DNA of 64,000 bases from Chloroflexota bacterium (GCA_018662365.1 JABJGH010000031.1:34468-98467); one strand, 5' to 3'. Positions 1-24,877 are shown, numbered from the stretch's first letter. A program made the numbers and translations. Notes: a model not told the origin generated them from the letters alone.

Positions 1-681
1 TACGTGCAAGATAATTCAGGAAATAACAACCGCTGCGCACAATGCCATGCCCCCACAAATTGGATGCCAAGCATGGATGAGATGCCCGAGAGTTGTTTCT
101 CGTGCAAATTTGAAATTAATGATCCCGACCCTTACATTTCAGAGGAGGATTGGGCGCATATTCCTTGCAGAACATGTCATAAATTAGATAAAAAGGATAA
201 TGTGCTCCCTGAGATCTTTTGGTTAGAGATTGCGCAGATCGATGAATATGCTAGTGTAGCAACAACAGATGAGCTATGCCAAAAATGTCATATTTCTACC
301 AATAAATTCGTGGGGCATCCGGGAACAATTGTTGGGGGGGCACATGAGGAATATCAATGTGTAGGTTGCCATGATGCCCATTCAAACACCGCCTCATGCG
401 GGGCAACTGAATGCCATGATCTAAATGTTGCGGCTGATCCCCCAATTGAAGGACATGACGAAGATCATCAGAATGTTTCTTGTGCTGCGTGCCATGACAG
501 TGGTGATTATGAAGTTGGACCGATGGATGAAGGTCAATGGATCACCTACATTACTGATTCAGAAAATATGGATGAGCTATATCCGTTTACTTCTCATAAT
601 ATTGTTTTAGAAGTTGTTTGTGATCGATGCCATTTCCCGGACAATCCCTGGGGATTATCCGGCGAAATCGTTCAAGAATAA
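1..681 (+). CDS. Multiheme c-type cytochrome, probably 5'-partial
   Basis: Six CxxCH motifs (CAQCH, CRTCH, CQKCH, CVGCH, CAACH, CDRCH) plus CFSCK and CGATECH. The frame is open to base 1 (TAC before GTG at 4) and no signal peptide is visible. Confidence 0.85.
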   Translation, partial: YVQDNSGNNNRCAQCHAPTNWMPSMDEMPESCFSCKFEINDPDPYISEEDWAHIPCRTCHKLDKKDNVLPEIFWLEIAQIDEYASVATTDELCQKCHISTNKFVGHPGTIVGGAHEEYQCVGCHDAHSNTASCGATECHDLNVAADPPIEGHDEDHQNVSCAACHDSGDYEVGPMDEGQWITYITDSENMDELYPFTSHNIVLEVVCDRCHFPDNPWGLSGEIVQE

Positions 682-709: not shown

Positions 710-1399
710 ATGAATGAAAAATCAGCTAGAACCTGGAAGATCGTTGCGATTGTATTCATGGGGCTCACTACAGCCATGAACCTCCTTGGAGGCGTAGGCA
801 CGATATGTGCGGCCTTCCTCACCAAACAATATCCTCCAATGTGGGTTTTCATGGATTACCAATGGTTATATCAACCTCTAATGATTCTCACCATTCTGAT
901 CGGTATTGCAGGGGTATGGTCTACGATCCAATTGATCAAGGGTGGAAAAAATGTATTTCGCAACGTGATGATCATTCTGATCGTTGGCACAATATTGGGC
1001 GGCACTCAATACTTTGCATCCTTGGCAATTCGAGGCAAAGGAGTCCCTGCTAATGTGAAGTTTTATGCAAATCTCGCTACATTATTGTTATTCTTGGTTT
1101 TGAATTCTCCCCTTTTCAAAACGAAAATGGATTTTTCAAAGCCGATTAAAAAATCAGATAAGACAATGGCGGGGGGCATGGCTGCCTTTATTTCTGGACT
1201 CATAATTCTCTCTGTGTTTATATGGGCAGGTCCCTCACATACCTACCAGGGAGACAATTGGGTAGAAGTATTCTTGATCCCCATTCTAGTCAATGGCACC
1301 TTCCTAACAGTGGGCGGGTTGATTGCCTTGACCAAAAGTTTTATTCAAATTAAAAAAGAAGATCAAATGAGGGTAACTTCTTCCTCATCTGATGGATAG
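710..1399 (+). CDS. Hypothetical integral membrane protein (about 6 TM)
   Basis: 229-aa ORF with several hydrophobic segments. RBS GGAG upstream; follows the multiheme gene by 28 bp. Confidence 0.7.
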   Translation: MNEKSARTWKIVAIVFMGLTTAMNLLGGVGTICAAFLTKQYPPMWVFMDYQWLYQPLMILTILIGIAGVWSTIQLIKGGKNVFRNVMIILIVGTILGGTQYFASLAIRGKGVPANVKFYANLATLLLFLVLNSPLFKTKMDFSKPIKKSDKTMAGGMAAFISGLIILSVFIWAGPSHTYQGDNWVEVFLIPILVNGTFLTVGGLIALTKSFIQIKKEDQMRVTSSSSDG

Positions 1400-1557: not shown

Positions 1558-2457
1558 TTAATTAAGCAGCAATGAAGTAAAAATTAGCATTGACCCAAGC
1601 ATATAAATCGAAGCGAATTTAAACAATCTGAAGTTGAGCTTTTCAGAGGGGTAGATCAAGCAACCAAGGGATAATCCAAACAATCCTACAGATAATAAGG
1701 TAAATAACCATAAAAATCCATTTGTAAGCCCAAGCCCGAGAGTGGCAATTGCCATTGAGGTAATGGATAATACTGAGGAAAAGGCAATAATCCTTTGGGT
1801 AGTTCTCGCTCCATACTTTGTAGGGAAGATTGGAATGCCGACACTATCATAATCTTTTTGATACCTAAGGGTAAATGTCATCATATGGGTTGGAATCCAA
1901 AAAAGAATCGCAAAAGCTAGCAATATGCCCACCCAATCGATATACCCAAGGCCAAGAGCGCGACCGGCCAAGACAGGCATTCCCCCAGAGATGCCTCCCC
2001 ATATAATTGACCATACAGAGGTTCTCTTTAACCACATCGTGTAGACGATGACATCGAAAAACAAACCACCAAGGACTATCAGCCCAAAAAGTTTATTTAG
2101 GGAAAATGCCCATGCAACTCCTGCAAATGAAAATAGAATACCAGTAGCCAAGGCTTTATTCGGAGTGATTTGTTTGCTGGGCAAAGGGCGCCAACAGGTT
2201 CTTTTCATTTCAGCATCGATGTCTCGGTCGAACCACATGTTCAGAATCGTACTTCCACTGATCGCTAGAAACAAACTGCCAGAAAGACTAAAAATATTAG
2301 ACCAATTAAAAGTGGTGGATTTAGCGCTGATATAGCCCGCAATGCCTGTAATCAATAACAGAAATGTTTGCAAGCTTTTTATTAGGGACCAATAATGCTT
2401 AATTGAAGTCCCAATTTGTTTTAGCTTCCCGATAGAGCCGACCATAAGTTTAGTCAT
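1558..2457 (-). CDS. ctaB: Protoheme IX farnesyltransferase (heme O synthase)
   Basis: UbiA-family motifs NMWFDRDIDAEMKRTCWRPLPS, YTMWLKR, GGISGGMPVLAG, FWIPTH, YQKDY. Confidence 0.9.
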   Translation of the reverse strand: MTKLMVGSIGKLKQIGTSIKHYWSLIKSLQTFLLLITGIAGYISAKSTTFNWSNIFSLSGSLFLAISGSTILNMWFDRDIDAEMKRTCWRPLPSKQITPNKALATGILFSFAGVAWAFSLNKLFGLIVLGGLFFDVIVYTMWLKRTSVWSIIWGGISGGMPVLAGRALGLGYIDWVGILLAFAILFWIPTHMMTFTLRYQKDYDSVGIPIFPTKYGARTTQRIIAFSSVLSITSMAIATLGLGLTNGFLWLFTLLSVGLFGLSLGCLIYPSEKLNFRLFKFASIYMLGSMLIFTSLLLN

Positions 2458-2490
2458 TAACTATCCTTTGAAACAAAAACTCCAAATTAT

Positions 2491-3396
2491 CTAATCTCTT
2501 ACGCATCTAAACCCGGTACTTGGGCCGAAATAGTCTGGCTCAGCGTTATTGGTTCCCCAAATTCGAAGATCGTAGGAATAGTTTGCTTTACTTCCTCCAT
2601 GCATATATCGATAGTGCTGATCCTCATATACATTTCCAACCCACTCTTCCACGTTTCCGGCCATATCATAAAGACCATATGGGCTGGCAGAATCCACTGT
2701 CCCAAACCCCATGTAAGTGGTCCCATTGTAGAAACCGACAGGGGAGGTATCTCCCATTTTTCCTATATATTCTTCGAATGGATCTCTACTAGCGTAATAA
2801 TTCGCATTTTCTGGGCCGACCTCATTTCCCCATGGGAACGCTCTTCCATCTGTTCCACGGCCAGCTTTTTCCCATTCATAATCTGAGGGTAAACGAGCAT
2901 CATTGTATTCACAATAGGCTTGGGCACCAAACCAAGTGACCAAGACAACGGGGTGATTCTCGTAACCAGATTTCACGGTGAACTGATCCCCATCAAAGGT
3001 GTATCTGAGGCCTTCATTGCTCAAGTCAACATGCAGCCAGTCTCCGGCAGTGATTTCCACTTCATGTCGGTATTCTCGAAATATATCACCGGGGTAATAT
3101 CCAAAAATTTGTTCATCAACTATCTTTATTGCTCCTTCAGCAAGAGCTTGGTTAAGATACTTTACGAATTGTTCATTGGTCACATTGGTGATCATGATGT
3201 CATATTCATAATCAAGGAGAACTTCTTTATTGAACTGCCCTTGCAAAAACTCTCCAGCGGGAATGGTCGCCCATTGATTTGGATCAATTCCAGGATCCAC
3301 GAGGAGGGGAGGGCCCGCCTCAGTGGAGGGGGAGCCGCAACTTACTAATAAAAGGATTAAACCGATCAATGTGAGGAGTGATTTTTGGGTTCTCAT
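2491..3396 (-). CDS. FGE/SUMF1-fold lipoprotein (NirV-like), lacking the FGE catalytic cysteines
   Basis: Lipobox LVSC; motifs HPVVLVTWFGAQAYC, RLPSDYEWEKAGRG, FPWGN, GLYDMAGNVEEW, GFRC. No CxxxxC after the GGS motif. Confidence 0.85.
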   Translation of the reverse strand: MRTQKSLLTLIGLILLLVSCGSPSTEAGPPLLVDPGIDPNQWATIPAGEFLQGQFNKEVLLDYEYDIMITNVTNEQFVKYLNQALAEGAIKIVDEQIFGYYPGDIFREYRHEVEITAGDWLHVDLSNEGLRYTFDGDQFTVKSGYENHPVVLVTWFGAQAYCEYNDARLPSDYEWEKAGRGTDGRAFPWGNEVGPENANYYASRDPFEEYIGKMGDTSPVGFYNGTTYMGFGTVDSASPYGLYDMAGNVEEWVGNVYEDQHYRYMHGGSKANYSYDLRIWGTNNAEPDYFGPSTGFRCVRD

Positions 3397-4868
3397 TGTT
3401 TCACCTCTTGTTTGATTTCTTCAAGTTCTCTTGACCACTGCCCTCTTTTTTTGAATAAGTCGAATAGCCGCCAAGCCATAAAGCTGCCTAAGGCTACTAA
3501 CAGCGTTCCTAATCCTATTTCAATTAAGATCATGATCGTATCCACCAAGGGTTGCTGAGCTGCTTCGCTGATGAAAAGGCGTTTCATGAAGAAAACAACC
3601 GCCGCACCGAAGGCTAGATTGGAAAAAATGATCACTATCCAACCAAACCATTTCCTCGTTTTTCCCTTTAATCCGTAGAGGTCGGCGATATAAAAGAGGA
3701 GAATCGTCGCAATTATTGTGGCTAGAATATGCCAATGTCCGGCTAGCTCAATTCGTTCTTCTCTAGCGGGCCATTTTCGGATGACCTCATCCAATTTCAC
3801 GGCAAAGAAAATGCCGATGAAGGAGGTGGTGAAATTCATGAAAAGCATTTGCCAGGTTGCACCAAATTTTAGGGGGTCGTGGAGCAAAGCTTTAATTTTT
3901 TGGAAGAAATTAGGTTTTTCTATTCCTTGTTCTGCAATCCTATCTTTGATCAATTGCCCCCATGAGAATATCAGCAAGAATAGGCCAACCAGCAAGATCA
4001 GGGTAGACCCTCCGTAGATGATCATATGAGCGATGAATTGGAAGGGGACAACCATCCAAACCCCAAAGGTGATGATAATGGTGCCAATAATCATTAGGGG
4101 CATTGAAATTTTATGCAATATTCCTCGGAAATTAACCCATTTGCCGACGATTAGGGCACAAGCAATGGCGATTTGTGTGAGCATGATATGCAAATGGCCG
4201 ATAACAGCAAGATCGAGGACATTTTTATTCGGCATTCTGATCGTATTTTCTGCCAGAAATGTTTCAAATCCATTTCCGGTGAGGGAGCCAGGAATTGCCC
4301 CAAACAACACTGACCCGAGAGTGCCCATCGCCATCACGAAAAATGCTACTCTTTCGAGGTCTAACCCTTTTTTGGTTCGAGAATGCTCTTTACTATCGAT
4401 ATAATATTCTTTTTTCCACGGCCACAGGGCGATGGCAAATAATATTCCACCAAAATACATCAGACATTCCCCAAATATAAAGAGCCCATGAAATACGTAA
4501 TTATGTCCAAAATATGCAAACCATAGACCAAAGATCATGGCAAACAAGTACCCAACCGTCACTGTTGCATTGATCGAGCTTCTTTGGCTATCCTTCATTT
4601 TGAGCATTGAGTTTATGATGTAAACTTCGATGGCAATGACCGCATTTGCGATGACATGGTAAAGGATGATGATCCGACCTTCACGTTCAGCCGGTTCTAA
4701 GCTCATTTTTAGGCTTTTGATGATCACATCGCTGATCCCCAACTCAGCCATTGGCCCCGATAACATCCCGAAAATAGCAGAAACGATCGATATCATCGCC
4801 ACAGCCACTAAAATTAAACCCTTTGTAGATAGGAAAAGGAATTTGAATCGTTTTGAAAACTGTTGCAT
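3393..4868 (-). CDS. Unassigned 12-TM His-rich membrane protein with heme-copper oxidase subunit I-like repeat pattern
   Basis: About 12 hydrophobic helices. His at the start of TM2 (LYH71), TM6 (GH225LH227) and TM10 (GH378WH380); extra His in TM4 and TM8. Function unknown. Confidence 0.7.
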   Translation of the reverse strand: MQQFSKRFKFLFLSTKGLILVAVAMISIVSAIFGMLSGPMAELGISDVIIKSLKMSLEPAEREGRIIILYHVIANAVIAIEVYIINSMLKMKDSQRSSINATVTVGYLFAMIFGLWFAYFGHNYVFHGLFIFGECLMYFGGILFAIALWPWKKEYYIDSKEHSRTKKGLDLERVAFFVMAMGTLGSVLFGAIPGSLTGNGFETFLAENTIRMPNKNVLDLAVIGHLHIMLTQIAIACALIVGKWVNFRGILHKISMPLMIIGTIIITFGVWMVVPFQFIAHMIIYGGSTLILLVGLFLLIFSWGQLIKDRIAEQGIEKPNFFQKIKALLHDPLKFGATWQMLFMNFTTSFIGIFFAVKLDEVIRKWPAREERIELAGHWHILATIIATILLFYIADLYGLKGKTRKWFGWIVIIFSNLAFGAAVVFFMKRLFISEAAQQPLVDTIMILIEIGLGTLLVALGSFMAWRLFDLFKKRGQWSRELEEIKQEVKQ

Positions 4869-4965
4869 TGAATTCTCCTAAATCTTGATATTTAATAAAT
4901 TAAATGGAAAGGCGCATTTAATCAGCCTCTTTAGTATAAAATATCACAAATAGGCTAAATAAAAA

Positions 4966-4979
4966 TTGACTTAAGTTAA
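4966..4979. promoter_or_regulatory. Candidate Crp/Fnr-family box
   Basis: TTGAC-TTAA-GTTAA near-palindrome about 100 bp upstream of the 4868 start. A minus-strand TATACT (-10-like) lies at 4933-4938. Confidence 0.35.
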
Positions 4980-5048
4980 GTTAGGAATGAGATGTTATGG
5001 GAAAATAACCCCAAGATTATTGTAGAAATTTCTATGGAAATGTAACCC

Positions 5049-5792
5049 TTATGGGAGGGCAGGTTCGATTTCGATGAGGGTTAAACTATAGAGTTTTTCG
5101 GGCTGCAATATCTCGATCGTAACCCTGTCACTTTCTATTAATCCTTCTTCTCTGAAATCCCCTAAAATTCTGCTAATCACAACTGGTGAAGTTGAAATAT
5201 GGGCAGCCATTTGCTGAATAGATTGATGTTTTCTCTCAATTTTAATCTGTCCATTATCGCTGAGATTGAGTAATAATAATGCAACCCGCTCTCGCACCGG
5301 GCGAAATGAAAGATCAGAATATTTTGAAACCAATTCTCGGTTTCTCTTGGCTAAAATGGGGAGCAAACCAAGGCCCATTTCAGGAAAACAACGAAGTCCT
5401 TCTTGGAATTCACAGGGATTTGCTCGCCAAACAGTACAGTTTTTAAAGGCTATCGCTGTATCAGGATTTACCCCTCCGTCGATCGCAGCAATTTCATTAA
5501 ACATGATCACAGGCTTGATGATCGCCATGATATTTTCTTGACCTTCAGGCCCCATTTTATAGAGGTGAACCTCACCTTTTAGCAATACACAAAGGCCAAA
5601 ATTTGGATCTTCTTCGTAAAAAATTGTTTTCCCTACCGGATAGCGTTTAATTGCCCCAGCTTGCACGATTTTTAATAGATCTCTTTCCGAATAATTCGAA
5701 AAGGGAATAATTCGTTTCATTTTTTGAACAAGGCCAGAAAATTCAAACACTTGATGGCTCCAAATGATTATTTGTGAGAGTAAATCCATCAT
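5049..5792 (-). CDS. Crp/Fnr-family transcription regulator (DNR/NnrR-like)
   Basis: cNMP-binding-like N-domain (GKTIFYEED, GEVHLYK, FNEIAAIDG), C-helix RPVRERVALLL, HTH ending VISR. No FNR-type N-terminal Cys cluster. Confidence 0.9.
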   Translation of the reverse strand: MMDLLSQIIIWSHQVFEFSGLVQKMKRIIPFSNYSERDLLKIVQAGAIKRYPVGKTIFYEEDPNFGLCVLLKGEVHLYKMGPEGQENIMAIIKPVIMFNEIAAIDGGVNPDTAIAFKNCTVWRANPCEFQEGLRCFPEMGLGLLPILAKRNRELVSKYSDLSFRPVRERVALLLLNLSDNGQIKIERKHQSIQQMAAHISTSPVVISRILGDFREEGLIESDRVTIEILQPEKLYSLTLIEIEPALP

Positions 5793-5895: not shown

Positions 5896-6345
5896 GTGAT
5901 GAATTTCAAACCGAGATTACCAAAGATTTGGCTTCATATCGTTGCTGGAACAATGTGGATTTGGGTGGGGTTATATTTAATCTCCCTCACAGTTGATTGG
6001 ATAAGCCCGGAAATTAATTTAATATCGTTTTTAATAATTTTTGCTGGGATCATATTGGCAAGCGCAATCTATTTTTTTGGATTTTCTAAGGTGGCTATAA
6101 AAAATATTAAACGAATTGATTTAATTGTGAGTGAAAGACCCTGCATATTTGCATTTCAAGAATGGAAAAGTTATCCACTGGTTGCTGTGATGATCTCAAT
6201 GGGTATCTATCTTCGGAAGTATTCCCTTTTTCCAAAATCTTTATTAGCGATTATGTATATCGGCATTGGTGGGGGTTTATTTCTTTCCGGTTTCAAATAT
6301 TTCCAAAAAATCATCCAAATTCGAAATGAAAAACCCTTGTTTTAG
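5896..6345 (+). CDS. Hypothetical membrane protein (about 4 TM)
   Basis: 149-aa hydrophobic ORF divergent from the Crp/Fnr gene. Confidence 0.65.
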   Translation: MMNFKPRLPKIWLHIVAGTMWIWVGLYLISLTVDWISPEINLISFLIIFAGIILASAIYFFGFSKVAIKNIKRIDLIVSERPCIFAFQEWKSYPLVAVMISMGIYLRKYSLFPKSLLAIMYIGIGGGLFLSGFKYFQKIIQIRNEKPLF

Positions 6346-9670: not shown

Positions 9671-10549
9671 ATGGAAGTTAAAAACTTTGACTGGAATTCA
9701 TTAGCGGGAAACTTTATTAAAGTCGTTTTTCTAGCGCTAATCTTATTATTTGCTTACTATACCTTTGGCTCACCGTCTTCTGGCTCTCCGGCTGCAACGG
9801 GTCAGGAAATCTTTGATGCGCAATGCCAATCTTGCCATACCATCGGAGGGGGGAATACAGTCGGTCCAGATCTTCAAGGGGTATTGGTGCGAAGAGATCG
9901 AGATTGGGTTGCACGGTTCATAGCCTCGCCAGATTTTGTAATCGCTGAGGGAGACCCGATAGCGATGGAATTATTAGAAGAATTCAATGGCATTGAAATG
10001 CCTAATCGAGCTTTAACCGATGAAGATGTCGAATTTGTTTTAGTATTCCTTGAAGTGCAGGACAGTCTCACCCAAGCGGCAGAAGATTTACCAACTGGAA
10101 ACGCAGCGGTAGGTGAGAAATTATTTACTGGTGCAAAAATGTTAGAGGGTAGAGGAACTCCCTGCATGGCCTGTCATACTGTGGGCAGTGTGGGTCAATT
10201 CGGTGGGGGAAATTTTGGTCCTGATCTCACACATGTTTATGGACGATATGGGGAAGCGGGATTGACAAGTGCGATGCAGAACATTTCATTCCCCACAATG
10301 AAAAACGTTTATTTAGGGAAAGCACTCACTGCCCAAGAGGCAGCTGATCTGCTTTCCTTTTTCGATGAGGCTGCTATCCTTGACGGTGAAGATCTAGCTG
10401 AATCTAGCACTAACATTTTTTGGGGTGTTGGTTCTGCAGGAGCCTTATTCCTCTTCATCATCATGGCGTTTTATTGGCCACGACAAAGTAAAAATCAGAC
10501 AGAAAGATTAAGAAACAAGGCAGATGCTGATTCAAGGAGAAATTCATGA
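9671..10549 (+). CDS. narC: Membrane-anchored diheme cytochrome c (NarC-like)
   Basis: CQSCH...GPDL and CMACH...GPDL domains, N- and C-terminal TM helices. The stop overlaps the narG start. Confidence 0.8.
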
Positions 10550-13500
10550 AAAAATGGGCCCTAGAAAAAACATCTTCAACTGAACGCAAGTGGGAGGAGT
10601 TTTACCGAAATCGTCATCAACATGACCGACGCATTCGCACCACTCATGGGGTGAACTGCACCGGTAGTTGTTCTTGGGAAGTGTTTGTAAAAGATGGCAT
10701 TGTTACTTGGGAAATGCAGGCCACCGATTATCCTCAACTAGAAGAAGGATTGCCCCCCTATGAACCCCGCGGATGCCAAAGGGGAATCAGTTATTCCTGG
10801 TATCTCTATAGCCCGATTCGGGTGAAATATCCTTATGCGCGCGGCGCATTGGTTGATCTATATCGTGAAGCTAAAGCAATCTATAATGATCCAGTAGAAG
10901 CATGGAAAGCAATCATGGCTGATCCGGTCGCTCGAAAACGGTACCAAACTGCGCGAGGTAAGGGTGGTTTTCGACGAATTTCTTGGGAAGAATCTCAAGA
11001 GATCATTGCGGCTTCTATGATTTACACCACTAAGAAATATGGACCTGACCGCATCGCGGGTTTCTCACCGATTCCTGCAATGTCACAAATTAGTTATGCA
11101 GCGGGCAGCCGATTTATGAGTCTTATGGGCGGCGTGATCATGAGTTTTTATGATTGGTACTGCGATCTCCCACCTGCCAGTCCAGAAATTTGGGGTGAAC
11201 AAACAGACGTCCATGAATCAGCAGATTGGTTCAACTCACGTTTTATTGCAGTGATGGGTTCAAATCTAAACATGACCCGCACCCCAGACACGCATTTTAT
11301 TTCTGAGGTACGACATGCAGGTGGAAAATTAACTGTCTTTTCTCCTGATTTTTCTCAGGTAGCAAAATTTGCAGATTATTGGATTCCTGTTCATGCCGGG
11401 CAAGACACCGCCTTTTGGATGGCAGTCAATCATGTAATTTTGACTGAATTCTACGTCCAAAAAGAGGTGCCTTATTTTACAGATTATCTAAAAATCTACA
11501 CAGATATGCCATTCTTGGTTGAAATTGAAGGCAATAAACCAGGTAAATATCTCCGAGCAAACGCTGTAGACACCTATAAAGATGTAGAAAATGGGGATTG
11601 GAAATTATTGATCTGGGATGCGCTCAGCAAAAAAGCGAGAATGCCGAAAGGAACATTAGGATTCCGATGGGCGGATAAGGAAACGGGGAAATGGAATCTT
11701 GAACCTAAAGATGGTTTGAATGATGATGAACTAAGCCCTCAGTTGAGTTTTGCAGAGGATTACGAGGACGTCATTGAACTCGAATTTGATGATTTCTCCT
11801 CTGATACAACAAACCTACGGGGTGTTCCCGTTCGTTACATCGAAACACCAGATGGAAGAAAAGCAGTCACCACAGTCTTTGACTTAGTCATGGCCCAGTT
11901 TGGTGTGGACCGCGGATTATCTGGTGCTTACCCTGAAAATTACGAAGATGCAGACGGAGTCTATACGCCTGCTTGGCAAGAAAAATACACCGGCATCCAT
12001 GCCGATACCTGCATTAAATATGCTCGAGAATGGGCAACCAATGGTGAAATGACGAATGGTAAGAATATGGTCATCATTGGTGCCGGAGCGAACCACTGGT
12101 ATCACAATAACTTGCTTTATCGATCGGCAATTGTTGCCCTGATGCTCACTGGAAGTGTGGGTGTGAATGGCGGCGGCCTGGCTCACTATGTCGGTCAAGA
12201 AAAATTGGTTAATGTCGGGTCTTGGGCGCAAATCGCCTTTGGTCTCGATTGGGGAATGGCACCACGCCATCAAAACACCCCTTCATTCCATTATGTGCAT
12301 ACCGATCAGTGGCGTTATGAGCGTGGTTACACCGCATATGATGAATTGCCCAATAAACCGGAAAAAGACCATACTATTGACCATCAAGTTCGTGCGGTTC
12401 GACGTGGATGGCTCCCTTTCTTCCCGCAATTCAAACGTAATTCAATCGAGGTTGCTCAAGATGCAATCGATGGTGGGGCAAAAGATGATGCGGAAATTGT
12501 GGATTATGTGGTTGATCAAATTAAAGAGAACAAGATGCCACTCTCGGTTGAAGACCCTGATGCTGAGGAAAACTGGCCTAGAGTTTGGATGATCTGGCGT
12601 GGCAACGCGATCGGCACTAGTGCGAAAGGACATGAATATTTCCTCAAACATTATTTAGGAACACATAATAATGCAATTGCCGGTGAACAGGCATTGGGTC
12701 ATACCAATGAAGTGGTTTATCACAAGAATGCGCCAGAAGGCAAAATGGACTTGGTGGTCGACCTTAATTTCCGGATGGATACCTCGGCCCTCTACTCAGA
12801 TATCGTCCTGCCGGCAGCAACTTGGTATGAGAAAGATGATCTTAATACGACTGACATGCATACCTTCATTAACCCCATGCAAGCCGCAATTCCCCCTGCA
12901 TGGGAATCGAAATCTGATTGGGATATCTTCAAATCATTAGCTAAAAAAGTGAGTGAAATGTCTGAAACTCATCTCTCAGAACCTATGAAAGATGTGGTGA
13001 TGCTGCCATTGAAACATGATACCCCAGATGAAATGGCTCAGCCCCAAATAGTGGATTGGAATACGGGTGAAGTTGAACCTATTCCAGGGAAAACAATGCC
13101 CCATTTCAAAATTGTGGAACGAGATTATACAAGTATATATGAAAAATTCATCAGTCTCGGAAAGGGCGTTGAAAAGAATGGTATTGCTGCCCATGGTTTG
13201 AGAATTCCTGTGGCAGATGAGTACGATTATCTGAAACGGGTACAGCCTCGTGAGTATGGAAAACATGGTGGAGATGTAGATCAAGAGGGTGATACCTATC
13301 CTTCCCTAGAATTTGGCATACAGGTATGTGACACAATTTTGCGCTTAGATCCTGCTTCTAATGGCGAATTGGCTCATCGAGCCTTCGAAGCTGAAGAGAA
13401 GAAAACAGGACTTTCCCTAACCCATCTTGCGGCGAATAACAGAGATACGCGAATAAGTTTCTCGGATCTGATCAGTCAGCCTCGAAGAGTACTCACAACA

Positions 13501-14172
13501 CCCACTTGGTCAGGGTTAATCAACAAGGGCAGAGCTTATTCACCCTTCACGCTTAATGTAGAAGAAAAGGTGCCTTGGCGGACTTTGACCGGCCGACAAC
13601 ATTTTTATCTCGATCATGAAGGATATCTAGCCTGGGGAGAACATTTGCCAGTCTATAAGCCACGCCCAGATCATACGATGCTAGATGAGACTGAAAACAG
13701 CATGGCTGAAGCTCAGGGCAAGATGATGAATTACATCACCCCGCATGGTAAATGGAGTATCCATTCCACGTACTCAGATAATCATCGCATGATGACATTA
13801 TCTCGAGGAAACTACCCGGTCTGGCTCAATAATAAAGATGCTGACGAGATGGAAATCAAAGACAACGATTGGGTCGAGGTTTATAACGATAACGGTGTAT
13901 TCGTTCAGCGAGCAATCGTATCCGCTCGCATTCCTGCTGGCACAGTTTTTGTGTACCATGCCACGGAACGCACGATCGGGATCCCAAAATCTCCACTCCG
14001 TAAAAATAAGCGAGCGGGCATGAACAATTCATTGACCCGTGCTCGACTAAAACCAGTGTTGATGTCTGGTGGTTATGGCCAATTTACTTATGCCTTCAAC
14101 TACTGGGGACCGACCGGCGTGAATCGTGACACATTTGTCTTTGTGCGAAGAATCGATAAACCTAATTTCTAG
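10546..14172 (+). CDS. narG: Respiratory nitrate reductase alpha subunit (no Tat signal, cytoplasm-facing type)
   Basis: [55 protein letters not shown] motifs; 1208 aa. Confidence 0.97.
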
Positions 14173-14226
14173 ACCTCACCTTCATTTCACCAAGATTGAG
14201 GGTGAACGAGGGTCAAGGAGTAATTT

Positions 14227-15735
14227 ATGAACGTAAGAGCACATATGAGTATGATCTTCCATCTCGATAAATGTATTGGTTGTCATACTTGCTCGGTTGC
14301 ATGTAAAAATTTATGGACAGACCGGAAGGGTGCAGAGTACATGTGGTGGAATAATGTCGAAACCCGCCCGGGTACTGGATATCCCACCCAATGGGAGGAT
14401 CAGGAATATTTCAAGGGGGGATGGGAGAAAAAAGGAAAAGGTCTCAAGCTGAAGTTACATTCCAGGCTTCAAGGACTAGCCAATTTATTTTTCAACCATA
14501 AATTACCTGATCTAAAAGATTATTATGAACCCTTTACTTTTCGCTATCAAGATCTTTTTAATTCCCCTGAAGGAAAGGACCAGCCTACGGCCATTCCGAT
14601 CTCCATGATCAATGGAAAGCCGATAGATATTGATGGGGGTCCGAATTGGGACGATGACCTGGGTGGTTCTGGCATCTATGCAAATAACGATTTGAATATG
14701 GCAGATGTTCCAGAAGAAACTCGTCAACAGATGCAGGAACTTGAAAGACTGGTGTTCAATTATTTACCCAGAATATGTAATCACTGCCTAAATCCATCCT
14801 GCGTTGCGGCTTGCCCATCGGGTGCGATCTATAAACGGGCGGAGGATGGGGTCGTACTCGTCAATGAAAATGAATGCAAGGCATGGCGCATGTGTGTGGC
14901 TGCCTGTCCTTATAAGAAGGTTTATTACAACTGGAACACAGGGAAATCAGAAAAATGCATTTTATGTTTCCCGAGAATGGAAACAGGTCAGGCTCCAGCA
15001 TGCGCACATTCTTGTGTGGGACGCATCCGATATATGGGCGTGCTTCTTTATGACGCTGACCAGATACCAGACGCAGCCAATGTAGCTGATGAGGATTTGG
15101 TCGAAGCGCATAGAGCAATAATTCTAGACCCCTTTGACCCAGAAGTTATCGCTGGCGCAAAAGCGAATGGCATCGACGATGGGTGGATCACATCTGCCCA
15201 GCAATCTCCTGCATATAAATTCGTCAAGGAATGGAAATTGGCCTTACCGTTACACCCCGAATTCCGAACTATGGTAATGATGTATTATATTCCGCCATTA
15301 TCCCCGGTGGTAAGCGTGACAGAAAATGGCTTATACCAATTAGATATTGAAGAAAATAATCATGATTTCGAGATATTTAAAAGATTGGATGCCGCTCGGT
15401 TGCCGGTTAAATATTTAGCAAACCTTTTCTCTGCTGGAAATGAAACAGTAATGCGGGAAATCTTGAAGAAACTTCTTGCCGTTCGGGTGTATATGCGCCG
15501 AAAAACAGTAGTAGGAAAGGTAGATGAAGTTGCATTAAATGCACTCGATGAAGCAGGATTAAGTGAACATCAGGCTATTGCTATCTATAAACTGACTACT
15601 TTACCCACGATCGAAGAACGATTTGTCTTTCCTCCGTATCACAGAGAGATGGACATTGAAGCCAGTATGGACCCATTGGCCCATAAAGGCGAAGTGGGTT
15701 TGGGATTCATTCAACCCCCTAAGAGGAGTTCCTAG
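14227..15735 (+). CDS. narH: Nitrate reductase beta subunit
   Basis: DKCIGCHTCSVACK, RICNHCLNPSCVAACP, CVAACPYKK, EKCILCFPR, LPLHPEFRT. Confidence 0.97.
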   Translation: MNVRAHMSMIFHLDKCIGCHTCSVACKNLWTDRKGAEYMWWNNVETRPGTGYPTQWEDQEYFKGGWEKKGKGLKLKLHSRLQGLANLFFNHKLPDLKDYYEPFTFRYQDLFNSPEGKDQPTAIPISMINGKPIDIDGGPNWDDDLGGSGIYANNDLNMADVPEETRQQMQELERLVFNYLPRICNHCLNPSCVAACPSGAIYKRAEDGVVLVNENECKAWRMCVAACPYKKVYYNWNTGKSEKCILCFPRMETGQAPACAHSCVGRIRYMGVLLYDADQIPDAANVADEDLVEAHRAIILDPFDPEVIAGAKANGIDDGWITSAQQSPAYKFVKEWKLALPLHPEFRTMVMMYYIPPLSPVVSVTENGLYQLDIEENNHDFEIFKRLDAARLPVKYLANLFSAGNETVMREILKKLLAVRVYMRRKTVVGKVDEVALNALDEAGLSEHQAIAIYKLTTLPTIEERFVFPPYHREMDIEASMDPLAHKGEVGLGFIQPPKRSS

Positions 15736-16238
15736 TGGATACGCTATCGATGTTTGCTGAAGCTTTTCAATATCCGTACCCCGGTCAAATAGATGCTCTA
15801 CATGCGCAAACAAAAGAATTGAAAGATACACCTGCTGAGAGAGAATTATCAAAATTTGTTGAAAAAATCGTCCCTCTTTCGCTTTCGGAGCAGGAAGAAC
15901 TATTTACCCGTACTCTAGATTTAAGTCCTTTATCTGCCCCCTATGTGGGTTACCACGTTTGGGGGGAGAGTTACAAAAGAGGCGAGTTTATGGCTGCACT
16001 AAATAAGGAAATGAAAGAATTAAATGTAGACCTTGATGGCGAGCTACCGGATCATTTGCTCCCCATCTTGCGTTATCTTCATGCCACCGCTACACCCATG
16101 CCAGAATTGATGAGCGTATTGGATCAATCACTAAACTCGATGATCAAATCATTGAAAAAGGGTGAAGAGCATAACCCTTATGTTCATCTATTTGAAGCTC
16201 TTGCGTTTTCATTTGGTGCTGTGAAAATAGAAGCATAA
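15735..16238 (+). CDS. narJ: Nitrate reductase molybdenum cofactor chaperone
   Basis: EELFTRTLDL, PYVGYHVWGESYKRG, ELPDHLLPIL, NPY; lies between narH and narI. Confidence 0.9.
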   Translation: MDTLSMFAEAFQYPYPGQIDALHAQTKELKDTPAERELSKFVEKIVPLSLSEQEELFTRTLDLSPLSAPYVGYHVWGESYKRGEFMAALNKEMKELNVDLDGELPDHLLPILRYLHATATPMPELMSVLDQSLNSMIKSLKKGEEHNPYVHLFEALAFSFGAVKIEA

Positions 16239-16271
16239 AAAAATAGGAATCAAAGTTTTTGGAGTAAACCT

Positions 16272-16967
16272 ATGGACTGGAACCAATTTTTATTTGTGAT
16301 TTTCCCATATATGGCCCTGACCTTATTTGTTGTGGTCACAGTTTACCGAGCGATTTTTCGGCCCTTTACCATTTCGAGTTTGTCCTCGCAATTACTGGAA
16401 CGGAAGCAGCTCTTTTGGGGATCAATCTCCTTTCATAATGGAATATTGATCATTTTACTCGGCCACCTTTTGGCATTGCTTTTTCCTCAAAGTCTAGTGC
16501 TTTGGAATTCGGTACCTTTCAGGCTTTATTTACTTGAAGTAACCGGATTGGTTTTAGCACTTTGGAGTTTTGTGGGTGTCTTGATCCTGATCGTGAGGCG
16601 CATTTCCGTGTCAAATATTCGGGCAGTGACCCAGCCTACAGATATGGGCGTTTTATTACTTTTGATGTTATCCGTCCTATCCGGAATCATCACCGCCACT
16701 GGATACCGGTTTGGATCCACTTGGTTTACGGGAGTATTTTCCCCTTATCTATGGTCGATCTTAACCTTCGCCCCTAGACCTGAATTGGTTGCGCCATTAC
16801 CCTGGACGATCCAATTTCATGCGTTCAACTTTTTTATCTTATTAGCTATTTTTCCTTTCACAAGGTTGATCCATATTATTACCTATCCGCTGAGCTACCT
16901 CTTCCGCCCCTGGCAGATCGTGATTTGGGTGAGGGAACAGAGAAAGCAGAACGAAGGCCGGTCCTAA
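16272..16967 (+). CDS. narI: Nitrate reductase gamma subunit (cytochrome b)
   Basis: FPY, SSQLLE, FHNGIL...GH, FHAFN, FPFTRLIH motifs. Confidence 0.95.
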   Translation: MDWNQFLFVIFPYMALTLFVVVTVYRAIFRPFTISSLSSQLLERKQLFWGSISFHNGILIILLGHLLALLFPQSLVLWNSVPFRLYLLEVTGLVLALWSFVGVLILIVRRISVSNIRAVTQPTDMGVLLLLMLSVLSGIITATGYRFGSTWFTGVFSPYLWSILTFAPRPELVAPLPWTIQFHAFNFFILLAIFPFTRLIHIITYPLSYLFRPWQIVIWVREQRKQNEGRS

Positions 16968-16993
16968 AAAATACATTCTGAGGAAAAGAAATT

Positions 16994-18466
16994 ATGAAAG
17001 AGCAAAAAACAGCCTATACCGTATTAGCCCTAAACACCCTTGCTTTCACAGTATGTTTTGCAGCATGGATGTTAAATGGTGTTTTGGTCACATTTTTGGT
17101 AGACAATGGGGTGTTCAATTGGGATGCTGCCCAAATGGGTGTGTTGATTGGTATTCCCGTTCTGACCGGTTCGATCATGCGCCTTCCATTAGGCGTATTA
17201 ACCGATAAATATGGTGGGCGGCCAGTCTATGCAATTCTGATGCTACTTAGTGCAATTCCAATGTATTTGCTAGGACAGGCAAATTCTTATAATGAATTCT
17301 TAATCTACAGCTTGGGATTCGGTATGACCGGTGCTTCTTTTGCCGTGGGTATCGCTTTTAGTTCGGTGTGGTTTTCCAAGGAAAAACAAGGTACGGCTCT
17401 TGGAATTTTCGGTGCGGGGAATGCTGGTGCAGCCTTAACTACGATGGGTGCTCCCAGTATATTACGCAACCTAACCGATGGCGGTGCCAATATTGAAGGC
17501 TGGCGTCAATTGCCCCAAATCTATGCAATAGCTTTGGCAGTTATGGCGGTAATATTTTATATCTTTAGTACCAACAAAAAACCCGCCAGCGGGCAGCGAA
17601 AATTGATTGAGATGTTAGCCCCCTTAAAGAATGTTCGAGTCTGGCGATTTGGCCTCTATTATTTCTTAGTATTTGGTGGATTCGTGGCACTCGCACAGTG
17701 GCTAGTGCCCTATTATGTAAATGTTTATGCGATGTCGATTGTTACCGCAGGCCTGTTGACATCGATTTTCTCTCTGCCATCAGGCCTAATTCGGGCAGTG
17801 GGAGGGGTGCTGTCAGATCGAGTGGGGGCTAGGGTGGTGATGTATTGGGTGTTGGGTTCAATCGCAGTCTGCACTTTTCTTTTATTCTTCCCCAAAATGG
17901 AAATCGAATCCCCAGGTAGTGGCATTATGGCTCGGCGGGGAGGAACTGTCACCGCTGTCTCAGAGACTGAAATTCATGTTGGAAATGATGTGTATACCCT
18001 TGATCCAGTCCTAGTAAGAGATGTGGATGATACGGAATTGATCTTATTGCCAAAGGTAAATTCATGGCACGAAGCCAAAGTAAGTGTGGGCGATCAGGTT
18101 CTGAAGAAAGAACTTTTGGCGCAAGGCATCACGCATATTTATTTCCAGGCCAATGTCTGGGTCTTTACAGTGATGGTGTTTGTGATTGGTATTGCGATGG
18201 GGATTGGAAAGGCGGCAGTCTACAAATATATCCCAGAGTATTTCCCCGATGAGGTGGGCGTTGTGGGTGGGATTGTGGGTGTGGTCGGTGGTCTTGGTGG
18301 ATTTGTAAGCCCAATCATTTTTGGTAGATTGCTTAAATCTATCGGTCTGTGGACAACAACTTGGATGTTCTTTTTCCTCATCACTCTGACTTGTTTGATC
18401 TGGTTGAGTATCGTTGTTCGCAAAATTACTAAGAAAGATACGAGAATTGAAGCTTCAGCATCTTAG
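16994..18466 (+). CDS. narK: NarK1-type nitrate transporter with a soluble insertion
   Basis: MFS NNP family: TGSIMRLPLG, DKYGGR, GIFGAGNAG, FGLYYFLVFGGF, GIGKAAVYK, GGLGGF. Confidence 0.9.
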   Translation: MKEQKTAYTVLALNTLAFTVCFAAWMLNGVLVTFLVDNGVFNWDAAQMGVLIGIPVLTGSIMRLPLGVLTDKYGGRPVYAILMLLSAIPMYLLGQANSYNEFLIYSLGFGMTGASFAVGIAFSSVWFSKEKQGTALGIFGAGNAGAALTTMGAPSILRNLTDGGANIEGWRQLPQIYAIALAVMAVIFYIFSTNKKPASGQRKLIEMLAPLKNVRVWRFGLYYFLVFGGFVALAQWLVPYYVNVYAMSIVTAGLLTSIFSLPSGLIRAVGGVLSDRVGARVVMYWVLGSIAVCTFLLFFPKMEIESPGSGIMARRGGTVTAVSETEIHVGNDVYTLDPVLVRDVDDTELILLPKVNSWHEAKVSVGDQVLKKELLAQGITHIYFQANVWVFTVMVFVIGIAMGIGKAAVYKYIPEYFPDEVGVVGGIVGVVGGLGGFVSPIIFGRLLKSIGLWTTTWMFFFLITLTCLIWLSIVVRKITKKDTRIEASAS

Positions 18467-18480
18467 TACCTAAGGAGTCA

Positions 18481-20034
18481 TTGATGGATCGTACAATTGA
18501 AAAATGGGAAGTAGAAGATCAAGATTTTTGGAGTTCGACAGGGTCTAAGATCGCTTCACGGAACTTATGGATATCCATTCCAAGTTTATTGCTTGCTTTT
18601 GCAATATGGATGGCATGGAGTGTGATCACGGTCCAAATGAAAAACCTTGGTTTTCCCTTTGATACCGTCCAACTCTTTACATTATCAGCAATTGCAGGGT
18701 TATCCGGTGCGACCCTTCGCATTCCGAATTCTTTCTTAATTGCAATTGCGGGTGGAAGAAATGTGATCGCATTTACAACGGCCTTATTGCTTCTCCCTGC
18801 GATTGGTTTAGGGATCGCCTTACAGAATATTGAAACGCCCTTTGCCACATTTACCATTTTAGCGGCTCTTTCTGGCTTGGGTGGTGGAAATTTTTCCTCG
18901 TCTATGTCGAATATCAGTTTCTTTTTCCCCAAAAAGATGCAAGGCCTATCCTTAGGATTGAACGCCGGATTAGGCAATATTGGGGTCAGCGTGATGCAAT
19001 TATTGATCCCCTTTGTGGTTACCTTTGGCTTGTTCGGTGCGCTGGGTGGCGGAGGTTTGCCGCTGGTAGTGGATGCTGGAGGAAATCCGGCAGGAACAAT
19101 TGCTTTTATTCAAAATGCAGGATTGGTTTGGGTGCCTTTATTACTTCTGCTTGCAATCGCAGCATGGTTCGGCATGAACAATTTATCGAAAGCTACGCCT
19201 AAACTTGGATCCACGATGACCGCATTGGCCAAGATTTTTGGATTACTGATGATCGGAGGGGTAGGTGCTGCCGTTGGGTTATATCTTTTATTGAGTCTCG
19301 AATTAAATATGTGGTTGGTTCTGCCAATCACTATAGTATTGACAGTGCTAATGTTAAAGGCTATTCCGGGTGAGATAAAGGAAAATCTCAATACTCAATT
19401 TGTAATTTTTAAGAATAAACATAATTGGATCATGACCTATTTATATACGATGACCTTTGGGTCATTTATTGGTTATTCTGCAGCTTTTCCACTGCTTATC
19501 CGAGTGGTCTTTGGGGAACTTCCCGACGGAAGCATCAACCCCAATGCCCCTAACCCTTTTGCGTATGCCTGGTTAGGACCATTAGTAGGCTCCATTGCTC
19601 GACCCATTGGGGGATGGATCTCAGATAAATGGGGGGGCGCAAAGGTGACCCAATGGGACACAGTGGTGATGATCGCATCTGCATTGGGCGTTGCTTATTA
19701 TGTGAAAGAAGCCAGTAATTCTCCCACCCCAGAAGCATACTTTATGCCATTTCTGATTCTTTTCTTAATTCTTTTTATTACTACTGGAATTGGAAACGGT
19801 TCCACATTTCGGATGGTGCCAATCATCTTTAAGCCCTCTGAGGCTGGACCAGTATTAGGTTGGACCGCTGCAGTAGCAGCTTACGGTGCATTTATTATTC
19901 CAAGAATATTTGGTCAACAGGTAAATGCAGGCACACCAGAATTTGCCCTTTATGGTTTTGCTTTTTATTATCTGACCTGTTTGGTATTGAATTGGTATTA
20001 CTACGCAAGAAAAAATGCTGAGATCGTTTGCTAG
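18481..20034 (+). CDS. narK: NarK2-type nitrate/nitrite antiporter
   Basis: WEVEDQDFW, RNLWISIP, GGGNFSSSMSNISFFFPK, GLNAGLGN, YTMTFGSFIG, GIGNGSTFRM. Confidence 0.92.
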   Translation: MMDRTIEKWEVEDQDFWSSTGSKIASRNLWISIPSLLLAFAIWMAWSVITVQMKNLGFPFDTVQLFTLSAIAGLSGATLRIPNSFLIAIAGGRNVIAFTTALLLLPAIGLGIALQNIETPFATFTILAALSGLGGGNFSSSMSNISFFFPKKMQGLSLGLNAGLGNIGVSVMQLLIPFVVTFGLFGALGGGGLPLVVDAGGNPAGTIAFIQNAGLVWVPLLLLLAIAAWFGMNNLSKATPKLGSTMTALAKIFGLLMIGGVGAAVGLYLLLSLELNMWLVLPITIVLTVLMLKAIPGEIKENLNTQFVIFKNKHNWIMTYLYTMTFGSFIGYSAAFPLLIRVVFGELPDGSINPNAPNPFAYAWLGPLVGSIARPIGGWISDKWGGAKVTQWDTVVMIASALGVAYYVKEASNSPTPEAYFMPFLILFLILFITTGIGNGSTFRMVPIIFKPSEAGPVLGWTAAVAAYGAFIIPRIFGQQVNAGTPEFALYGFAFYYLTCLVLNWYYYARKNAEIVC

Positions 20035-20048
20035 AAAAGGATATATGT

Positions 20049-20699
20049 ATGGAGATGGATCAAAGCTTACTGAAAGGAATATTTGAAAAAGCAGCTTCTT
20101 CTCATAACAAGATTTGTCCTCGTGTTGTGCTGGGGGGGCGCATAGGATTGGCGGGTGCTGAAGTGATGGGAATGGAAGTGCCACGCCATGATAAACGCTT
20201 ATTGATCATATTGGAAACAGATGGCTGTTTTGTAAGTGGTATTGAAGCTTCCACAGGCTGTTCCGTCAATCACCGCACTTTACGTGTTGAGGATTATGGA
20301 AAAGTAGCGGGAACTTTTGTGAATGTGAAGACGGGGGTGGCTGTACGAGTCGCACCACGAAGAGGCGTTCGCGAAAGAGCTTTGAATTATGCACCCGAAG
20401 AAAAAAAACGATATTTCGCCATGCTAAAGGGATATCAAGTGATGCCATTGGACGAACTTTTGACGATCGAAGATGTTGTACTCAGCAAACCAATAAACTC
20501 GATTATTAGCCGGGCAGGGGTCCGAGTAAATTGTGAAAATTGCTCTGAAGAAATCATTAATGAACGGGAAATCCTCCAGGATGGAAAAGTTTATTGTCAA
20601 GCATGTGCAGGACCAGCCTATTATCAGACGAGTCCAAATGAACCGATTGCAACAGAACTCATAATCAATCATGGAATGTCCTCTGGATTAGGGGATTAG
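20049..20699 (+). CDS. FmdE-family protein with C-terminal C4 zinc finger
   Basis: HNKICPRVVLGGRIG, ETDGC, TGCSV; C-terminal CENC...CQAC. The ATG at 20049 is preferred over the ORF-track TTG at 20028. Confidence 0.8.
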   Translation: MEMDQSLLKGIFEKAASSHNKICPRVVLGGRIGLAGAEVMGMEVPRHDKRLLIILETDGCFVSGIEASTGCSVNHRTLRVEDYGKVAGTFVNVKTGVAVRVAPRRGVRERALNYAPEEKKRYFAMLKGYQVMPLDELLTIEDVVLSKPINSIISRAGVRVNCENCSEEIINEREILQDGKVYCQACAGPAYYQTSPNEPIATELIINHGMSSGLGD

Positions 20700-20731
20700 A
20701 TGGTTGTTGGATCAAGAATGAGGAGTAAGGA

Positions 20732-22798: not shown

Positions 22799-22816
22799 AA
22801 GAGAGGAAAAAAAGAT

Positions 22817-23569
22817 ATGCTGAGAAATAATCCCCTTGTGCAAAAGCTTGTCAATTCAAGTGTATGGAAATCTATTTTCCGTCATGGCTGGCCAGATAAT
22901 CCTTTGGATCGTTCCTTGATCATGACACAAAATGTATTCTTGCATTTGCACTCAGTGAAGGTAAGTAAGAAGAGTTTAAAAGCTACATATTCCTTTGGTT
23001 TAGGCTTGCTCACAACCTTTTCATTTTTAGAACTAACCCTCACAGGTATTCTGTTGATGTTCTATTATGTGCCTTCAGTGGAAAGGGCCTTTGTGGACAT
23101 TGTTGAACTTCAAACAACGGTACCATTTGGGCAACTTTTGAGAAATATGCACAGATGGGGCGCTCATTTGATGGTGATCGCGGCAGTGCTTCATATGGTG
23201 CGTGTCTTTTTTACCGGCGCATATAAAAAGCCAAGAGAATTTAATTGGATCGTAGGGGTGATCTTACTATTACTGACATTAGGGGCAAGTTTTACCGGCT
23301 ATTTATTACCCTGGGATCAACTTTCATTCTGGGCGATTACCGTAGGCACCTCAATTGCGGGTTACGCACCAGTCATTGGCCCCCCTATGCAGAAAATATT
23401 ATTAGGGGGTGCGGAAGTGGGACAAGAATCTTTAGTGAGGTTCTATGCATTACACGTCATGGTCATCCCCACATTTCTCCTATTATTGATTTCCATACAT
23501 TTATGGAGAGTGAGGAAAGATGGTGGGATGGCCGCATCAGAAATTAGTGATGAGAATGAGGCAGCATAA
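22817..23569 (+). CDS. qcrB: Cytochrome b, N-terminal (b6-like) subunit of a Rieske/cytb complex
   Basis: LRNMHRWGAH, HMVRVFFTGAYKKPREFNW, FTGYLLPWDQ, RFYALHV, IHLW. Confidence 0.9.
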   Translation: MLRNNPLVQKLVNSSVWKSIFRHGWPDNPLDRSLIMTQNVFLHLHSVKVSKKSLKATYSFGLGLLTTFSFLELTLTGILLMFYYVPSVERAFVDIVELQTTVPFGQLLRNMHRWGAHLMVIAAVLHMVRVFFTGAYKKPREFNWIVGVILLLLTLGASFTGYLLPWDQLSFWAITVGTSIAGYAPVIGPPMQKILLGGAEVGQESLVRFYALHVMVIPTFLLLLISIHLWRVRKDGGMAASEISDENEAA

Positions 23570-24351
23570 TGACAGAAGAAAAAGATAAAGACGAAAAAGA
23601 AGCTTTTGAAAAATCCTCCGGAAAAACGTATAGCCTAGTTGAGATGGTCAAAGCCCCGCTTACGATGGTCGACAAGGGACCAGACGATAGTATTTTCTCA
23701 TTTCCAATTGTAGCTATTTGGGAAGCGATCCTATTCTTAGGAATGATGGTTTTCTTGATCGGTTTTTCGTTGATCAAGGATGCACCTCTAGAAGAATTGG
23801 CAAACCCACTAATAACTACTGACCCGGCAAAAGCTCCTTGGTATTTTATGGGCTTGCAAGAATTGTTGGAGCATATGCATCCCTTCTTTGCGGGTGTAGC
23901 TCTCCCTGGAGCCCTGGTTGTTTTCTTGTTACTGATCCCTTATCTGGACCAAAGCAAGGCGGGCATTGGGAGATGGTTCACTTCTGAGCGAGGAAAATTG
24001 ATCACGAAATGGAGCTCAATCTATGCCATGATTGTTTTTCCTGCATTTGCCGTTATAGACTATTTCTTTCCTCCTAGAGAAATCTTCAGGGATGTATTTC
24101 CTTCCTGGGTGACTCAATCTCTAATTCCGGTGACGATTCTCGTTGTCTTGGCATTTCTCCCAGTATTTTATGTATGGAAAAAAGGGGAAGGGAAAGCCAC
24201 CGCGAGGGAATTAATCATAGCACTCTTTACAGTGATGATCGTCGCAGGATTTGCCCTAACAATAATTGGGTTCTTCTTCCGTGGCCCAGGCTTTGAGATG
24301 TTTTGGCCATGGGACATGCCGGCGGGATATAGTCCCTTAGATAATTTATAA
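23569..24351 (+). CDS. Cytochrome b C-terminal (subunit IV-like) subunit
   Basis: APLEELANP...DPAKAPWYFMGLQELL, IPYLD; translationally coupled to the cytochrome b gene. Confidence 0.85.
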   Translation: MTEEKDKDEKEAFEKSSGKTYSLVEMVKAPLTMVDKGPDDSIFSFPIVAIWEAILFLGMMVFLIGFSLIKDAPLEELANPLITTDPAKAPWYFMGLQELLEHMHPFFAGVALPGALVVFLLLIPYLDQSKAGIGRWFTSERGKLITKWSSIYAMIVFPAFAVIDYFFPPREIFRDVFPSWVTQSLIPVTILVVLAFLPVFYVWKKGEGKATARELIIALFTVMIVAGFALTIIGFFFRGPGFEMFWPWDMPAGYSPLDNL

Positions 24352-24376
24352 AAAATGGTGATCGAGGAGAATTCGT

Positions 24377-24868: not shown

Positions 24869-24877
24869 GAGCAAAAT

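Follow-up and report, generated by a model that had tools for sequence, protein, structure and literature searches.

In a 64,000-nucleotide stretch of DNA from a Chloroflexota bacterium (GCA_018662365.1, JABJGH010000031.1:34468-98467; hereafter the window, numbered from its first letter), we describe a four-gene operon centred on a 491-residue membrane protein with 12 transmembrane (TM) helices. Based on residue conservation, two predicted structures and gene neighbourhoods, we propose that this protein is, on balance, the central subunit of a previously undescribed membrane oxidoreductase that uses heme, possibly together with a metal. The best-supported reading is that of a new heme O-dependent membrane redox enzyme with the fold of the heme-copper oxidoreductases (HCOs), in which an FGE-fold lipoprotein serves as extracytoplasmic structural subunit. 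A sequence-only reading of the window had described three genes under a Crp/Fnr regulator, and the set is present at the positions given there, all four genes being co-oriented on the minus strand:

5049-5792, minus strand: Crp/Fnr regulator with cNMP_binding and HTH_Crp_2 domains (Pfam/NCBIfam), without an N-terminal Cys cluster

3393-4868, minus strand: 491-residue 12-TM membrane protein without family match; invariant residues H71, H127, H225, H227, H281, H378, H380, Y70, E371 and W379

2491-3396, minus strand: 301-residue FGE-sulfatase-domain lipoprotein (PF03781, 5.6e-34) with the lipobox LLVSC

1558-2457, minus strand: 299-residue UbiA-family heme O synthase of the CtaB/CyoE clade (TIGR01473, 217 bits)

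The regulator gene lies upstream of the 12-TM gene at a distance of 180 bp, and the 12-TM and lipoprotein genes overlap by 4 nt.

The 491-residue protein has zero matches in Pfam and NCBIfam, and its family profile returned noise only when compared with PDB sequences. The AlphaFold2 model contains 12 long helices, and the distribution of Lys and Arg, with 22 on the predicted inner loops and 7 on the outer loops, indicates an N-in/C-in topology. Histidines are found at positions 71, 122, 127, 162, 225, 227, 252, 281, 330, 378 and 380, of which those at 71, 122, 127, 225, 227, 252, 281, 378 and 380 stand exactly where the sequence-only reading had placed them. In an alignment of 129 bacterial and archaeal sequences covering all clades, H71, H127, H225, H227, H281, H378 and H380 are invariant (129/129), together with Y70, E371 and W379, and R65, Y119, E207, S37 and P39 are nearly so. 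Of the nine histidines listed in the sequence-only reading, only these seven are conserved; H122 and H252 are not. According to the predicted topology, all seven invariant histidines are located in the outer membrane half of even-numbered helices.

The same 129-sequence alignment was divided into residues 1-160, 161-322 and 323-480 for profile-profile comparison. Blocks 2 and 3 match with an E-value of 3.8e-9 (probability 96%, hhalign), blocks 1 and 3 with 3.5e-6 (88%) and blocks 1 and 2 with 2e-3 (14%), while reversed-sequence controls gave E-values of 3e-3 to 0.4. The three alignments have a common register, in which H71 equals H227 and H380, and H127 equals H281; block 1 carries a two-residue deletion where blocks 2 and 3 have the first His of the HxH motif. 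As judged from these profiles, the 12-TM protein is composed of three homologous four-helix units, in line with the known pseudo-threefold architecture of HCOs. The arrangement of about 12 helices in three four-helix blocks, noted in the sequence-only reading, is recovered in the model and in the mutual homology of the blocks, and the resemblance between the segments RIIILYH and RIELAGH extends beyond chance (E 3.8e-9 and 3.5e-6 for the block profiles). The same repeat test on an alignment of eight canonical HCO sequences reached an E-value of 1.4e-3 at best.

Structure prediction was performed for the window protein (pLDDT 81, pTM 0.85, from a 42-sequence alignment) and, using a separate 50-sequence alignment, for the Asgard homolog P0278 (pLDDT 91, pTM 0.91). 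The best Foldseek matches of the window model in the PDB are HCO subunit I structures, headed by the T. thermophilus ba3 oxidase 3s3b_A (E 8e-3, TMq 0.59) and including cbb3, mitochondrial COX1 and cNOR. For P0278 the top 29 matches are all HCOs, spanning bo3, ba3, aa3, cbb3, cNOR and qNOR (TMq 0.44-0.58), with E. coli bo3 6wti_A as the best (E 1.4e-4). Across both models, HCO matches have TM-scores of 0.44-0.59 and Foldseek probabilities of 0.66-1.0 (1.0 for the best), whereas non-HCO matches, among them G-protein-coupled receptors, MATE and MurJ, remain below 0.3 in both searches. Since only HCOs exceed 0.3 for either model, the fold assignment is structurally robust. The HCO-like fold that had been postulated from the helix pattern is hence borne out by two independent predicted structures, and the models show the architecture of HCO subunit I.

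Comparison of profiles places several of the invariant histidines on known HCO ligands. The HCO alignment used comprised E. coli CyoB and seven plasmid-borne subunit I genes, and the family profile is colinear with it over 435 columns. In every hhalign run H378 aligns with CyoB H419, the proximal ligand of heme o3, and H380 with CyoB H421, a heme b ligand. H227 aligns with the CuB ligand H284; H281, where helix VIII begins, reaches the CuB ligand H333 only across an 8-residue gap. Block 3 compared with HCO TM9-12 gives an E-value of 0.013 (control 0.68).

The genes next to the 12-TM gene were surveyed in 80 species-representative loci, with denominators counting the loci that have enough flanking sequence. 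An FGE-like gene comes immediately after the 12-TM gene in 76 of 76 loci, and a heme O synthase gene follows it in 68 of 70 (Anaerolineae). Three Asgard loci have the order HxlR regulator, 213-235-residue membrane protein, 12-TM protein and UbiA, without FGE, and an intermediate relative (40% identity) has Crp, 12-TM protein and UbiA, again without FGE. The link to a co-oriented heme O synthase that had been suspected from the window therefore recurs in 68/70 Anaerolineae loci, 3/3 Asgard loci and the single intermediate locus. The synthase assignment itself is supported by profile scores: the product of 1558-2457 obtains 217 bits on TIGR01473 (cutoff 210.3), with the next non-synthase UbiA family at 54 bits, and the UbiA partners of other clades likewise score best on the heme O synthase model (177-222 bits, other families at most 72). 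The Asgard UbiA partners are 38-44% identical to that of the window, compared to 31% for E. coli CyoE.

As to the lipoprotein, its proposed role as partner is strengthened by the 76/76 adjacency and by one natural fusion, the 785-residue metagenomic protein P0123, which joins the 12-TM protein, an extra TM helix and an FGE-like domain. This layout positions the FGE domain outside the membrane, as expected from the lipoprotein signal that the separate protein carries. Among solved structures, the non-catalytic pFGE/SUMF2 is nearest to the lipoprotein (1y4j, E 5.8e-18). Where human FGE has its catalytic Cys pair (C336/C341), the window lipoprotein reads KANYSY, without Cys, and no Cys is found at the active-site positions of any of the 79 partner lipoproteins. 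Catalytic FGE activity was rejected on this ground.

The family is widespread. Matches to it are found in over 3,200 clusters at 90% identity, each carrying the name 'hypothetical', and at least 569 of about 186,000 GTDB species genomes carry it, overwhelmingly from Anaerolineae/Chloroflexota. An exhaustive HMMER search against 50%-identity clusters produced only 285 matches, mostly fragments, with full-length distant relatives at 25-40% identity, and a profile of these relatives led to Asgard archaea (Hodarchaeales, Kariarchaeaceae, Heimdall-, Thor- and Odinarchaeota) and to further Anaerolineae-labelled metagenome-assembled genomes. This abundance is comparable to that of eNOR, reported from 547 GTDB genomes (PMC11214002). 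No description of the family was found in a full-text literature search, and none of the 12 HCO families of PMC11214002 corresponds to it.

The recurrent neighbours of the 12-TM gene point to an O2- or nitric oxide (NO)-responsive redox role. A canonical COX1 gene is found near it in one of the 80 close loci, L040, where it is directly upstream (L040:3041-5202), and in both examined loci of a distant clade, L101 (L101:14868-16944) and L102 (L102:4716-6789). These COX1 proteins carry another residue in place of the CuB-binding His of helix VI, close to Asp residues (GLDMVAD), and retain the His-His pair and the HxH motif; the partner, of 140 residues (169 in L040), is putatively cupredoxin-like and contains no Cys, hence it has no CuA site. 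This COX1 agrees with gNOR as described in the literature, where gNOR is a putative quinol-dependent NO reductase (PMC11214002). L101:1-19923 further encodes encapsulin, ferritin, glutaredoxin, a Cu-ATPase, a YHS protein, a nitroreductase, two Crp genes, hemerythrins, YgbA_NO and rubrerythrins, with DUF166 downstream of the 12-TM homolog, which thereby sits in an apparent O2/NO-stress island. In the same distant clade an S-adenosylmethionine (SAM) methyltransferase gene directly precedes the homolog, and L001 and L002 carry a nitroreductase. Multiheme cytochrome c genes occur near the cluster in 10 of 80 loci and represent a possible electron partner. The N-oxide context advanced in the sequence-only reading survives in part: the narXL/narG neighbourhood is not conserved, and indirect indications come from other clades in the form of the gNOR-like, YgbA_NO and hemerythrin neighbours. 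Adjacency to nar genes as a conserved feature of the cluster was rejected, such genes being near it in 1-2 of 80 loci.

From these data we propose the following working model for the 12-TM enzyme. The seven outer-half histidines on helices II, IV, VI, VIII and X, preceded by the conserved arginines R62, R65 and R372, would bind either two to three hemes or a heme-metal centre, and the heme propionates would face outwards. The prenylated heme would be provided as a dedicated cofactor by the heme O synthase of the operon, much as cyoE serves cytochrome bo3. Having lost the FGE active site, the lipoprotein may act as a structural extracytoplasmic subunit in place of subunit II, and the small membrane proteins M229 and, in other genomes, M201/M206 (see below) may be further subunits or assembly factors. 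Electrons would pass from menaquinol or periplasmic multiheme cytochromes to a small oxidant, O2 or NO; these two are the leading candidates for the substrate, which is a guess on our part. Control would be exerted by Crp/Fnr-type regulators in bacteria and HxlR-type regulators in Asgard archaea, and the role may be scavenging or anaerobic respiration in mostly anaerobic organisms.

Two arrangements of the cofactors can be envisaged. Following the internal symmetry, the histidines would form two triads, H71/H225/H127 (helices II, VI and IV) and H227/H378/H281 (helices VI, X and VIII), leaving H380 alone. Alternatively, following the HCO alignment, H71 and H380 could coordinate a bis-His heme, H378 a high-spin heme, and H227 and H281, perhaps with H225, a non-heme site, while H127 would be left without an assignment, perhaps pairing with H225 in the third pore. 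A more far-reaching and tentative proposal, which we hold to be possible without favouring it, builds on the symmetric triads: the family would be a deep-branching sister group of the entire HCO superfamily that has kept the triplicated four-helix ancestral unit in its sequence, with symmetric His triads filling all three pores with heme O, heme B or metal, and with the 12-TM and heme O synthase genes forming a mobile module shared by Anaerolineae and Asgard archaea. If true, filling of the three pores by His triads would be a cofactor arrangement never seen in HCOs.

Several observations weigh against an HCO-fold redox enzyme. PF00115/COX1 matches none of 17 diverse family members up to an E-value of 10 (hmmscan). 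The hhalign score of the family against HCOs is 27.6 (E 0.024) compared to 22.0 (E 0.13) for the reversed control, and with a score barely above its control, homology to HCOs is plausible, not demonstrated by sequence. H71 aligns seven residues past CyoB H106, and the internal repeat equates it with the second His of the HxH motif, i.e. it assigns the helix II His another register than that of the HCO heme ligand. As the sequence-only reading had recognised, helix VII has no His-His pair and helix VI, with the motif GHLHIML, has no Tyr, so that the cross-linked Tyr of HPEVY or an equivalent is absent. The lack of subunit II, also noted there, is general, with no such gene recognised beside the 12-TM gene in 89 of 92 loci; the exceptions, L040, L101 and L102, have the gNOR-like COX1 and its putative cupredoxin-like partner nearby. 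Finally, the distant clade of L101 and L102 has no heme O synthase gene within 10 kb.

The main rival, which we consider unlikely but serious, is a heme-handling or heme-modifying factor, analogous to CtaA, that would receive heme O from the neighbouring synthase and convert, store or deliver it for other oxidases, for instance the gNOR-like HCO. It would account for the near-obligate pairing with heme O synthase and for the lack of a recognisable electron-input subunit, and the His pairs on helices II/IV and VI/VIII, the gNOR-like COX1 adjoining the gene in L040, L101 and L102 and the SAM methyltransferase directly upstream in the distant clade are compatible with it, as is the reported frequency of synteny between heme A synthase (HAS) and heme O synthase (HOS) genes (PMC12808453). 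However, the predicted fold agrees with that of HCO subunit I, no CtaA structure is found among the 50 Foldseek matches listed for either model, and neither the 12-TM protein nor 16 distant relatives match COX15-CtaA (PF02628) up to an E-value of 10. In addition, a canonical HCO is nearby in just 1 of 80 close loci, and a dedicated extracytoplasmic lipoprotein and Crp/HxlR regulation suit an enzyme better than a chaperone.

Improbable, in our view, is a non-redox protein on a 12-helix scaffold, such as a channel for metal (Cu, Zn or Fe) or small molecules or a His-relay sensor. HCO sequence homology is not demonstrable, the conserved residues are all on the outer side, and a Cu-ATPase and a YHS protein are near the gene in L101 and an HMA ATPase in L004, which would fit such a function, yet the tight link to heme O synthase would be left without a role, and the helix X HxH aligned to HCO heme ligands, with a conserved Arg before it, is typical of a heme site. 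Still harder to sustain, and regarded by us as very improbable, is an ordinary divergent member of a known HCO family acting in denitrification with the neighbouring nar operon. The HCO-like fold and the location beside narXL and narGHJI in the window speak for this idea, but PF00115 gives no match, compared to 2.2e-61 for the genuine gNOR-like COX1 encoded beside a homolog, the ligand set differs, none of the 12 families in PMC11214002 fits and nar genes are rare near the cluster (1-2/80 loci). NnrS (PF05940) likewise gives no match up to an E-value of 10. We retain the HCO-fold, heme O-dependent redox enzyme as the preferred interpretation.

Crp-family genes are upstream of the 12-TM gene in L001, L004, L090 and many of the 80 loci, and L003 has two such genes approximately 4 kb upstream on the opposite strand; by a strict count, a Crp homolog of at least 35% identity lies within 2.5 kb in 16 of 59 loci. 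In the window, a perfect inverted repeat, ATTTAAT-TT-ATTAAAT, occupies 4890-4905 (minus strand), 22-37 nt 5' of the 12-TM start codon, and a TGTGA half-site is present further upstream. The repeat could be a candidate operator, or a chance product of AT-rich sequence.

The operon is flanked by further genes:

1-681, plus strand: gene for a multiheme cytochrome c, its 5' part cut off by the window edge

710-1399, plus strand: M229, a 229-residue multi-TM protein with module homologs in Bacteria and Archaea

5896-6345, plus strand: M149, a 149-residue 4-TM protein divergent from the Crp gene, a recurrent, optional neighbour

Neither M229 nor M149 was mentioned in the sequence-only reading, and both belong to the module. 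Homologs of M229 lie beside the cluster in L001-L005 and in 32 of 42 full-flank loci, and the Asgard homologs are L092_235 and L091_228. M149 homologs, 46-50% identical, are within the cluster in L003, L004 and L005 and occur in 10 of 42 full-flank loci. The M229 gene starts 28 nt after the multiheme cytochrome c gene on the same strand, the pair converging on the operon, and L004 and L005 share this arrangement. In many Anaerolineae a paralogous pair, M206/M201, flanks the cluster, and homologs are upstream of the Asgard 12-TM genes; these are multi-TM proteins of about 200-225 residues with one conserved His-bearing helix (HGxAGL or HIPSGL), without a Pfam match and absent within the 64-kb window. 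Examples are L001:7281-7901 with L001:11252-11857, L091:6185-6826 and L093:6311-6985.

The wider window contains a NarX/NarL-like two-component pair, a narGHJI operon and a Rieske/cytochrome b module. At 9671-26023 (plus strand), overlapping genes for a c-type cytochrome and NarG lead into narHJI and two NarK genes, after which come genes for an FmdE-like protein, an Fe-S flavoprotein, a split cytochrome b, a Rieske protein and a multi-domain cytochrome c.

Aerobic respiration and the production of N2O depend on heme-copper oxidases and NO reductases, and the origin of their 12-helix catalytic subunit is an open question. A family with the HCO fold, a readable threefold repeat and another ligand set offers a handle on the origin of the oxidase fold and on the chemistry that the 12-helix scaffold can support. 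It also implies that a 'heme O synthase' gene in Anaerolineae and Asgard genomes, mostly of anaerobes, is no sure sign of a canonical oxidase, a caveat that bears on inferences of Asgard oxygen metabolism. The lipoprotein partner would represent a new use of the FGE fold.

Compared to HCO subunit I, the family shares the 12-TM core, the helix order, the pseudo-threefold 3 x 4 layout with N-in/C-in topology, the aligned HxH of helix X and His of helix VI, and ligands in the outer half; it differs in that the repeat is detectable in its sequence (E 4e-9, against 1.4e-3 at best for HCOs), in further invariant histidines, one each on helices IV and VIII and an additional one on helix VI, in the absence of subunits II and III, and in the FGE-fold lipoprotein partner. 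A heme O synthase gene within the operon is shared with cyoABCDE. The absence of a redox-active subunit II and of a Tyr cofactor, as well as non-standard active-site ligands, recall qNOR and gNOR (PMC11214002), which however keep the helix VII His-His pair and clear PF00115 membership, whereas the 12-TM family has neither. Similar to CtaA/COX15, the family consists of repeated four-helix units and is encoded beside heme O synthase, but CtaA has 8 TM helices instead of 12. In CtaA the histidines are on helices 2, 4, 6 and 8 of the repeated four-helix units. The partner lipoprotein resembles pFGE/SUMF2 and PorK/GldK in displaying an FGE fold without the Cys pair, and PorK/GldK also in being a lipoprotein and probably a structural subunit; what sets it apart from both is its obligate coupling, once as a fusion, with an HCO-fold membrane protein.

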